Source: Bythopirellula sp.
Lineage (GTDB): Bacteria > Planctomycetota > Planctomycetia > Pirellulales > Lacipirellulaceae
DNA: 64,000 nucleotides
Direction of reading: 5' to 3'
Assembly: GCA_965216565.1 (NCBI GenBank)
Contig: OZ244170.1
Span: 928,001-992,000, forward strand
Of the stretch, positions 10,752-13,885 are shown one piece after another. The notes under the pieces are model-generated. The model saw only the letters and a program-made list of their open reading frames with translations. It was not told where the DNA came from and did no database searches. The first letter of the stretch is position 1. Every line of letters begins with the position of its first letter. The position numbers were made by a program, and so were the translations under genes.

Positions 10752-10903
10752 GAGTCTGTTTAGGGATTTAAATCGCGACTCACAAACTCAAAGCGAATTG
10801 TCACGCCGAGGTCTGCCGAGGGGTCTAGCCAGATTCCTCGGCAGACCTCGGAATGACAGCAACTGTCGTTGCTGAGTCCCGATTTAAGTTCCTGGACACA
10901 CTC
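10752..10903. mobile_element. Putative MITE with 31-bp terminal inverted repeats, carrying a REP-like hairpin
   Basis: GAGTCTGTTTAGGGATTTAAATCGCGACTCA and TGAGTCCCGATTTAAGTTCCTGGACACACTC are 25/31 complementary. No ORF inside. Confidence 0.6.
10799..10858. repeat. 60-bp palindromic REP-like element (TGTCA...CCGAG...CTCGGAATGACA), copy 1
   Basis: Long hairpin, 56/60 identical to 57625-57684. Confidence 0.85.
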
Positions 10904-11052: not shown

Positions 11053-11081
11053 TTGCATATCCAGCCGCCCCGGCGTACAAT
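11053..11081 (+). promoter_or_regulatory. Sigma70-type promoter of the met genes
   Basis: TTGCAT-N17-TACAAT immediately upstream of the riboswitch-like motif. Confidence 0.7.
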
Positions 11082-11091
11082 TTAGAGCAAC

Positions 11092-11134
11092 TCGGGATTT
11101 GTGGCCGCTTGCAGCCGACACTGCTAAAGAGCCA
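11092..11134 (+). ncRNA. SAM-II-class riboswitch aptamer (compact H-type pseudoknot)
   Basis: TCGG-GATTTG-TGGC-CG-CTTGCAG-CCGA-CA-CTGCTAAAG-A-GCCA. P1 is TCGG/CCGA, GCAG pairs with CTGC and TGGC pairs with GCCA. The GATTT, TTGCA and GCTAAA motifs match SAM-II as I recall it, and the element lies upstream of a Met biosynthesis gene. Confidence 0.75.
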
Positions 11135-11191
11135 ACGCCAAACACTGAAAAGTCAGTGCGAGGCAACAATTCAGCTAGCTGGTTTATCAAG

Positions 11192-11225
11192 AGCCGCATT
11201 TGCCGAGAGTGAATGCGGTTTTTTT
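11192..11225 (+). terminator. Leader intrinsic terminator (probable riboswitch expression platform)
   Basis: AGCCGCATTT...GAATGCGGTT hairpin plus T7, about 50 nt before the ATG at 11275. Confidence 0.75.
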
Positions 11226-11274
11226 ATTGCGCTATATTTCCGACCACTCCCCCCTGACCCCCTCGCCTCTCACT

Positions 11275-12525
11275 ATGAGCCAGCTCGAAATGAAAAACCC
11301 ACCCGGCGATACCCAACCCGATGGTGATTCTTCGACCAAGCTAGACCACGATAAATTCCCCGAGGATTTTTCGACGCTCTCGGTCCACGCCGGCGAAGCA
11401 CGGCAGAAGCCGGGCAACTCGATCACCGATCCGATTTTCTGCGCGTCGACCTATTCTTTCGAAAGCACGCAGGCGGTGATCGACTTCATCGAGCAAAAGC
11501 AAACCCGGGAGGAGTACGGTCGCTACGGCAATCCGGGGGAACGGATTGTCGAGCGCAAGCTGGCTGCACTCGAAGGTGGCGAAGATGCGGTGCTTTATTC
11601 CAGCGGCATGGCGGCGATCGTCGGGCTGCTGATGTCGAAGCTAAGCAGTTGCGACGAGGTGATATTCTTCGACGAATGTTATCACCGCAGCCGCGAGTTT
11701 TGCACCAAACACCTGTCACGCTTCGGCGTGGTCACTCGGCAGGTGCGTGCCTGCGACTACGAGGCGATGGAAGCGGCCATCACGCCGCACACCAAAATGC
11801 TCATCAGCGAGTCGCCCACCAATCCGCACCTTAGTTGCGTCGACCTCGGTCGCTTTGCCGACATCGGTAAGCGGCATGGCGTGGAAACGCTGATCGATGC
11901 CACGCTGGCGACGCCTTACAACCTGCGACCCATCGATGCGGGGATCGACTACGTTTTGCACTCGGCCACCAAGTATCTTGGCGGACACAACGATCTACTG
12001 GCCGGCGTGGTGGTCGGTACGACCGAGCAGCTCGAACCAGTTCGCAATCTGCGCGGCATCATGGGTGCGGTCAACGGGCCGCAGAATGTGTATCTGCTCG
12101 CTCGGGGGCTAAAGACATTCGAACTTCGCATGCAACGGCATAACGAAAACGGACAAAAGATAGCCGAGTTCCTGGAGAGTCATCCTCGCGTCGAGCGGGT
12201 TTATTACCCGGGGCTCGAGTCGCATCCGTATCACGAAGTGGCCAAGCAAACAATGCGTGGCTACGGCGGGCTAGTCACGTTTCTGGTGAAAGACGCCGAC
12301 TGGCGGCAAACAGCCAACATCGTCGACGCCGCGAAAATCCCCCGCATCGCCCCCAGCTTGGGCGGCGTGGAATCGCTGATCGAACAACCGCTCGTAATGA
12401 GCTATTACCAGTGCACACCCGAAGAACGCAAACAGTTCGGCATCCCAGACAACATGATCCGCTTGTCAGCTGGGGTGGAGAACTCAGCCGATCTAGTTGC
12501 GGATTTAGAACAAGCACTGAGTTAG
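11275..12525 (+). CDS. metB: Cystathionine gamma-synthase (Cys/Met PLP-dependent family, plant-CGS-like)
   Basis: [26 protein letters not shown] (PLP Lys) and IAPSLGGVESL. ATG at 11275. Confidence 0.8.
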   Translation: MSQLEMKNPPGDTQPDGDSSTKLDHDKFPEDFSTLSVHAGEARQKPGNSITDPIFCASTYSFESTQAVIDFIEQKQTREEYGRYGNPGERIVERKLAALEGGEDAVLYSSGMAAIVGLLMSKLSSCDEVIFFDECYHRSREFCTKHLSRFGVVTRQVRACDYEAMEAAITPHTKMLISESPTNPHLSCVDLGRFADIGKRHGVETLIDATLATPYNLRPIDAGIDYVLHSATKYLGGHNDLLAGVVVGTTEQLEPVRNLRGIMGAVNGPQNVYLLARGLKTFELRMQRHNENGQKIAEFLESHPRVERVYYPGLESHPYHEVAKQTMRGYGGLVTFLVKDADWRQTANIVDAAKIPRIAPSLGGVESLIEQPLVMSYYQCTPEERKQFGIPDNMIRLSAGVENSADLVADLEQALS

Positions 12526-12531
12526 TTTCTA

Positions 12532-12708
12532 ACCACAGAGGACACAGAGGACACGGAGATTGTCTTAAACAGGTTGCGATAGCGACACACTAAGCTGAAG
12601 GACACCTGATCGATCTATTTCTCTACTTCTTGAATTCAATCCTGTCGATCGGTCGAATCCCGTAATCCTGTCTTAACTATTCTCCATGCCCTCCGTGTCC
12701 TCTGTGGT
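12532..12708. repeat. Inverted-repeat element built from 9-mers, between the two transsulfuration genes
   Basis: ACCACAGAGGACACAGAGGACACGGAG and CTCCATGCCCTCCGTGTCCTCTGTGGT are 24/27 complementary. AATCCTGTC-type units lie inside. Confidence 0.8.
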
Positions 12709-12727
12709 AATTTGAACAAGAATAACC

Positions 12728-13885
12728 ATGAGCAATCAACGTTTCCGAACACGCGCTATCCACGTTGGCAACGAAAAGTGTGCTGAGACCGGCGCCGTTG
12801 TGCCGCCGTTGCATTTGGCGTCGACGTTCGTGCAACCGGGGGCCGGGGATTGGGGGGAATTCGATTACTCTCGCAGCGGCAACCCGACGCGGAAGAATTT
12901 GGAAACCACGCTCACTTCGCTCGAAAACGGGGTCGGCGCGCTCGCCTTTGCCAGCGGGATGGCGGCGACCCATTGCGTGGCAAGCATGCTTAGCGCCGGC
13001 GACCATATCGTTGCCGGCAGCGATATCTACGGCGGCACTTATCGTCTTCTGCACAAAGTTACCAACCGCGCGGGCATCGAAGTCTCGCTTGTCGACGCCA
13101 CCCAGCCCGAGCGATTAAGGGAAACGCTCACCCCGGCGACCAAACTAGTTTGGATCGAAAGCCCAGGAAATCCGTTGCTCTCCATCACCGATATCGCGAA
13201 ATGTGCAGAGATTGCGCATCAGCACGGGGCCTTGCTTGGCGTCGATAGCACCTTCGCTACGCCCGTTTTAACGCGTCCCCTGGAGTTGGGAGCCGATATC
13301 GTGATGCATTCGGCCACAAAATATCTGGGTGGCCATAGCGATTTGGTCGGCGGCGCGTTGGTGGTGAAAGATCAGCAGCTTTACGACGAATTATATTTCG
13401 TTCAAAACTCCACCGGCGCGATTATGGGTCCGCTGGAAGCATTTCTCTGTTCCCGCGGCATCAAAACTTTGGAACTGCGCGTCCGCGAACAATGCCGCAC
13501 CACTACCCAATTGGCTGAGTGGTTGAACCAGCACCCGCGAGTCGAACGTGTTCTTTATCCGGGCATCGCCACGCACCCAGGACACGAACTCGCCAGCCGA
13601 CAGATGGACGGGGCCTTTGGAGCGATGCTTGCCTTTGAAATCCAAGGCGACTATTCGGCAGCAAAGAGATTTGCGGAGTCGACCGAGTTATTCCAATTGG
13701 CAGTAAGTCTCGGGGCGGTAGAATCCCTCATCGAACAACCCGCCTCGATGTCGCACGCCAGCTACGACGCCGCGGACCGTGCGAAACATGGTATCTCCGA
13801 TGGACTCATTCGCTTGTCGGTTGGTTTGGAAGCGGTGGAAGACTTACGGGCCGACCTGGAATTGGCTTTTAGTAAAATGGATTAA
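12728..13885 (+). CDS. Cystathionine beta/gamma-lyase family PLP enzyme
   Basis: [30 protein letters not shown] and [11 protein letters not shown]. Confidence 0.88.

Follow-up and report, generated by a model that had tools for sequence, protein, structure and literature searches.

A compact SAM-II-type riboswitch variant, likely SAM-binding, upstream of methionine-pathway genes in Pirellulales

A compact SAM-II variant is conserved across most of the order Pirellulales and is invisible to standard RNA-family models. The window, the whole 64,000-nucleotide stretch of Bythopirellula sp. DNA analysed here, carries it at 11092..11134 of the forward strand, as a predicted H-type pseudoknot. It is likely that this RNA binds SAM and that, at the window locus, it shuts off the transsulfuration genes through early termination; sequence comparison and folding models give us considerable confidence in this reading. 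From the sequence, its conservation, the gene context and the complementarity, which were observed directly, we infer the pseudoknot, the ligand, the transcription start site and the switching. The ligand, the pocket and the logic of termination are already known. The element also fills a gap in annotation: in about four in five sampled Pirellulales genomes there is a likely SAM riboswitch left uncalled by Rfam.

The predicted aptamer consists of helix P1 (11092-11095 with 11115-11118), the third strand L1 (11096-11101), P2a (11102-11105 with 11131-11134), P2b (11109-11114 with 11121-11127, in which 11125 would be the unpaired U that pairs with SAM) and loop L3 (11119-11120), all on the forward strand. 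This assignment draws on the alignment to RF00521, conservation, pair counts and covariance model R1, on which the window aptamer scored 67.6 bits. The first-pass annotation had named a promoter, the aptamer pairings, a CACTGA-AAAG-TCAGTG hairpin, a T7 terminator and an ATG at 11275, all of which were found in place, and the planctomycete host that it suspected holds. The check that it proposed against SAM-II and SAM-V covariance models returned a weak signal for SAM_alpha (RF00521), 13.3 bits for 11083-11147 with a cut-off of 36 (E-value 0.51 in a 121-nt search), and no match to the window for SAM-V (RF01826) or RF01726. The RF00521 alignment of the window retains the three pocket motifs, with deletions that remove the outer pairs of P1 together with most of L3. 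The nested fold of the aptamer is unremarkable (z 0.30 versus shuffles). Since neither the Rfam score nor the nested fold is significant alone, it is conservation that places the aptamer beyond chance.

The leader is single-copy in the host genome: model R1 matched it once, the next best score being 19.2 bits, and a loose motif scan of the genome returned many chance strings. The four-way junction aptamer of SAM-I (RF00162) had no match anywhere in the host genome, with the control positive in 3 of 14 genomes. Other Rfam matches in the region were to miRNA and snoRNA families and were rejected as chance. A palindromic intergenic repeat at 10778-10880, for which BLAST gave about 50 matches in other parts of the genome, explains the chance miRNA matches. 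Another, weaker repeat is present at 12526-12727.

When 41 genomes were searched at the protein level, 30 orthologue loci were obtained, and 11 genomes were not returned as loci. The motif lies upstream of the cystathionine gamma-synthase-like gene at 27 of the 30 loci, that is, at 27 of the 27 with enough upstream DNA; at the three loci without it, the contig ends no more than about 210 nt upstream. The comparison of leaders across relatives suggested by the first-pass annotation therefore bore out conservation ahead of the orthologous gene. Its assignment to the SAM-II type is supported as well, because the nucleotides of the SAM pocket are identical at all 27 loci of this protein-search set, and it stands in the comparative and folding tests.

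A pattern scan of a genome collection yielded at least 120 matches; among the matches listed, 72 of the 80 titled ones were from Planctomycetota and 4 from Spirochaetia. The member set of 133 was obtained from 147 rows after removal of 4 duplicates and 10 matches of non-Pirellulales type. Four of these removed rows are absent from alignment A1 too: L048, L072 and L108, which look like chance matches, and L085, which has a weak SAM_alpha match. For members found by pattern, invariance is partly built in, as the scan pattern fixed several core pairs, and the members are kin, so their counts are not independent. The same downstream gene homologue is present in 117 of the 133 members, and the remaining 16 records hold no more than 300 nt there.

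The covariance model matches 113 of 141 Pirellulales genomes, 1 weakly, with one strong copy each. One Pirellulales family (f14) shows no match in 13 genomes. In G037, a member of f14 and one of the 11 genomes not returned by the protein search, the gene is present and no motif was found upstream of it. In a pattern search, 9 of 12 Pirellulales genomes were hit; the remainder of the class gave 0 of 41 and the remainder of the phylum 1 of 348, and with the pattern reversed nothing matched. None of 101 Pirellulales genomes passed the RF00521 cut-off and none of 14 control genomes did either, and a scan of 20 member loci made no call for any SAM family.

Judged from the predicted pairs, the main departure of the element is the family-wide shortening of P1 to 2-4 pairs, along with a correspondingly short loop. 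The 133 members comprise 39 with 2 P1 pairs, 48 with 3, 39 with 4 and 7 with 5-6, so that 126 have 2-4; the mean is 3.1 versus 2.66 in permutations. What remains of L3 is mostly 1-5 nt. The loop of about 2 nt that the first-pass annotation found unusual is present, as a symptom of the shortened P1, which is the actual difference.

Among 127 distinct rows, 96.1% of the pair cells of the proposed pseudoknot pair, a level reached by 0 of 500 shuffles, and 46 cells are changed on both sides versus 22.3 in shuffles. Pairing registers that were slid pair at 24-60%. The third P1 pair covaries (AU in 50, CG in 22 and UA in 10 of the 127 rows), and P2a shows compensatory changes. Changes on both sides occur at 3 of the 12 core pairs, and 7 of the 12 are invariant. 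Because those 7 never vary and some pairs were fixed by the pattern, the support from covariation is confined to the third P1 pair and P2a. The third P1 pair is broken in 39 of the 127 rows, which together with the 39 members having two P1 pairs means that stable folding is not assured.

Comparison with known SAM riboswitches indicated that the closest relative is SAM-II, as represented by RF00521, the metA motif (PMC1273637) and metX. The order of motifs and the pocket nucleotides are alike. In metX, the pocket is formed by U10-U44, U11-U21-A45 and U12-A46 (PMC3303485), and the equivalents align and are unchanged in the window. The published description of SAM-II has a promoter right ahead of P1 and a terminator often following P2 (PMC1273637), an arrangement shared by the window together with the methionine genes downstream. 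Alpha-proteobacterial rows of the published alignment have long core stretches in common with the window.

Unlike SAM-II, the compact element has a P1 of 2-4 rather than about six pairs, an L3 of 1-5 nt in most members, without an A-rich run, in place of an A-rich one of about 10 nt, and an L1 motif that follows P1 directly. Its P2b is predicted to be two pairs longer and unbulged, and the whole element is about 40 nt long. By eye, 51 published SAM-II rows have a longer P1 and an A-rich L3, with no planctomycete row among them (PMC2258182, supplement 2). As the canonical P1 and L3 are lacking and the RF00521 score is under the cut-off, the element is placed as a variant within the SAM-II class, not as a plain member.

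SAM-II and SAM-V are regarded as types of one class, in a census that left out truncated SAM-II matches (PMC5473149). SAM-V, which excludes SAH, is functional with four pairs in P1, and its P2 has two plain Watson-Crick pairs at the base (PMC6061858); a short P1 and such basal pairs are likewise predicted for the compact element. SAM-V lacks the distal P2a (PMC2704228), whereas the compact element keeps a covarying P2a and pocket letters of the SAM-II type; also unlike SAM-V, the window has no P3 and is terminator-coupled. RF01726, the long-loop SAM-II of Bacteroidetes, has an unbulged P2b 3' strand in its consensus, as in the compact element, but has a full P1, extra nucleotides ahead of the L1 motif and an A-rich L3. 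In its predicted structure, the compact element mixes features of SAM-II and SAM-V.

If SAM binding is true, a SAM-II pocket works with almost no P1, a helix of six pairs that is assumed to be pre-formed in metX (PMC3326309). The loss of most of this helix, and of the A-rich loop of the 51 published rows, could instead mean a riboswitch of SAM-II fold with altered behaviour: much weaker affinity, poor discrimination between SAM and SAH, or a need for a protein or an RNA dimer that offsets the lost P1. In favour of a dimer, most members carry a perfect 8-nt palindrome in the P2a/L2 segment, but it is broken in the genus of the window and in several other variants. We consider altered behaviour quite unlikely, as every pocket nucleotide is kept and SAM-V works with its short P1 without accepting SAH.

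No published account of the compact variant was found in the literature; a prior listing is possible in supplements or in the full member lists of Rfam. It is not described in the available parts of PMC2864571, PMC4239095, PMC3766115 and PMC8632094. In the HTML alignments of PMC2258182, R. baltica has only two entries, both AdoCbl.

Related forms vary in the parts that are reduced in the window. In six genomes (L195 to L200), L3 carries inserts of 33-60 nt that are predicted to form hairpins, equalled in stability by 1-20 of 200 shuffles, and resemble P3 of SAM-V. At L200:1-61, just after the regulated gene, there is a match to the c-di-GMP-I riboswitch above its cut-off. In G274, from another planctomycete class, the form at L202:246-318 shares the core and has a full P1 and an A-rich loop; its SAM_alpha score of 30.1 bits falls just short of the Rfam cut-off. 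This copy lies ahead of a gene for 173 aa without a Pfam match, and its terminator has the same base.

These forms bear on another reading, in which the conserved sequence would act as DNA, as the operator of a repressor immediately after the promoter, and its likeness to SAM-II would be coincidental. Very high invariance, halves arranged as an inverted repeat and a fixed place about 11 nt after the -10 box would suit an operator. A spacer between the halves that varies from 2 to 9 nt across members argues against it, as do the hairpin inserts, the compensatory changes and the SAM_alpha match of the long-P1 form, and we give an operator very little credence.

A predicted promoter precedes the aptamer, with the -35 hexamer at 11053..11058 and the -10 hexamer at 11076..11081, separated by a 17-nt spacer, on the forward strand. 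The -35 hexamer matches the consensus at only 3 of 6 positions; in relatives, TTG stands 16-18 nt ahead of TAnnnT. This TTG-spacer-TAnnnT arrangement is found ahead of 117 of the 133 members versus 2.3 ± 1.5 in shuffles. A consensus scanner reported neither promoter nor terminator at the window locus. Transcription is likely to start at about 11087-11090, a few nucleotides before P1. In 85 of 117 members the predicted -10 box is 10-12 nt ahead of the first conserved G, which leaves little space for a longer P1.

Between the aptamer and the terminator is a variable spacer hairpin (11137..11165, core 11143-11158, forward strand). It is present in every computed folding state, and its sequence and length vary among relatives. 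The intrinsic terminator follows on the same strand at 11192..11225 (hairpin 11192-11219, T7 11219-11225). Alone, it folds at -16.6 kcal/mol (z -4.75), equalled by 0 of 200 shuffles. The distance of about 140 nt between aptamer and ATG, which the first-pass annotation reported as unusual, is present and is a consequence of the coupling to a terminator. Such coupling is common for SAM-II and hence not unusual in itself: in alpha- and beta-Proteobacteria SAM-II is most often terminator-linked (PMC2258182).

In the minimum free energy structure, 11100-11105 pairs with 11193-11198, the 5' base of the terminator, and 11107-11110 with 11188-11191. The predicted antiterminator 5' strand, 11100..11110 on the forward strand, runs from within L1 through P2a into the beginning of P2b. 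The first of these pairings had been put forward as an antiterminator in the first-pass annotation, and comparative and folding tests uphold it. A strict terminator was called in 64 of the 133 members and not in the other 69. Its base is complementary to the aptamer in 54 of the 64, versus 9 of 395 terminator-like hairpins of the host genome. The upper stems differ widely among members, and a base that is fixed while the upper stem varies suggests a third pairing partner. The median for cognate duplexes is -14.6 versus -7.9 kcal/mol for a background derived only from the weaker U-type aptamer of the window. In L121 the terminator base is kept despite an aptamer mismatch to it. For the variant aptamers L042, L056 and L060, a co-evolved downstream partner is suggestive (21-36 of 500 shuffles as good), and these probably represent one lineage; for L071, L122 and L121 such a partner is not significant against 500 shuffles.

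Under the proposed mechanism, transcription would start a few bases upstream of the aptamer. At low SAM, the L1/P2a strand would pair with the emerging 5' base of the terminator and the polymerase would read through; with SAM bound, this strand would be held in the pseudoknot triplex and the terminator would be freed. The ligand is taken to be SAM because of the pocket and the gene context. When nascent chains were folded, the probability of the antiterminator exceeded 0.5 in 46 of 60, and with the aptamer blocked the probability of the terminator exceeded 0.5 in 56 of 60 members. In the window, the antiterminator probability is 0.99-1.0 for transcripts ending at 11204-11216, 0.44 at 11219 and 0.05 at 11225. 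Since the terminator wins at full length in folding even without SAM, control would have to be kinetic. As folding predicts the antiterminator in nascent RNA, a kinetic SAM-dependent OFF switch is likely.

A constitutive terminator would also fit the full-length, unconstrained folding, in which 47 of 60 members form the terminator with no ligand present. The aptamer would then bind SAM, a short RNA would be made, expression would be capped, and SAM would act on the distant translation start or on RNA stability. There is a reported precedent in the metA SAM-II leader of S. meliloti, which shows that an aptamer and a terminator may be present without being coupled (PMC9373788). The antiterminator duplex of the window is also modest in energy, equalled by 38 of the 395 terminators of the genome and in 230 of 500 shuffles. 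A constitutive terminator would not call for a fixed base under a free upper stem, nor for an antiterminator that is nearly certain before the 3' arm is complete, and we regard it as unlikely. SAM-dependent termination is the preferred reading at the window locus.

A different output is indicated in some members. In 8 of 117, an in-frame ATG immediately follows P2a, and 7 of these 8 have no terminator call. An ATG at this position, as the predicted start codon, suggests a translational platform. The eight are L037, L038, L075, L079, L093, L098, L118 and L134, with titles including Rubripirellula, Stieleria and Rhodopirellula.

In folding, the stable helix of the free aptamer is P2, not P1. Tentatively, the P2 hairpin may form first, and a P1 of 2-3 pairs and the L1 triplex may close only on SAM. 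This would be the smallest natural SAM-II fold, with the order of folding reversed. One sensor of about 40 nt would then drive termination in some Pirellulales lineages and mask the start codon in others, as a type of its own within the SAM-II class, like SAM-V. The clade offers a natural series, with P1 from 2 to 6 pairs, L3 from 1 to 60 nt and either terminator or start-codon platforms, in which the needs of the pseudoknot can be tested. A 40-nt SAM sensor would also be a handy biosensor part.

Outside Planctomycetota, a Spirochaetia record (L086:621-1542) has a compact aptamer ahead of a short metK-like gene (265 aa, PF00438). Tandems occur in four Spirochaetales records, three titled and one untitled (L034:1338-1542, L062:1496-1697, L076:1335-1543 and L139:296-491). 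In each, the compact aptamer comes first; its P2a is compensated, and it has a small terminator-like hairpin. After it comes another aptamer, SAM-II/V-like (21.8-33.6 bits). The second aptamer overlaps the ribosome site, next to the start codon, of a small gene without assigned function. A SAM-II/SAM-V tandem has been tabulated for Pelagibacter (PMC2704228).

In the window and in the members, the leader stands at a methionine-pathway gene. The gene at 11275..12525 (forward strand, PF01053) encodes a Cys/Met PLP enzyme, most likely a cystathionine gamma-synthase. Its best solved relative is the cystathionine gamma-synthase 1i41/1qgn (347.7 bits; next 290.5), which we take to be the tobacco enzyme; no NCBIfam cut-off was reached. 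A second Cys/Met PLP enzyme (12728..13885, forward strand, PF01053) is cystathionine lyase-like, its best solved relatives being cystathionine gamma- and beta-lyases. The two genes are probably co-transcribed, and an adjacent paralogue of the first is present in many relatives. Elsewhere in the host genome, no riboswitch copy was found at a metY-like gene, matched in two pieces, or at a distant metA-like gene (G000:C1:2758239-2761173; L205 and L206). These two genes possibly provide a second route to homocysteine.
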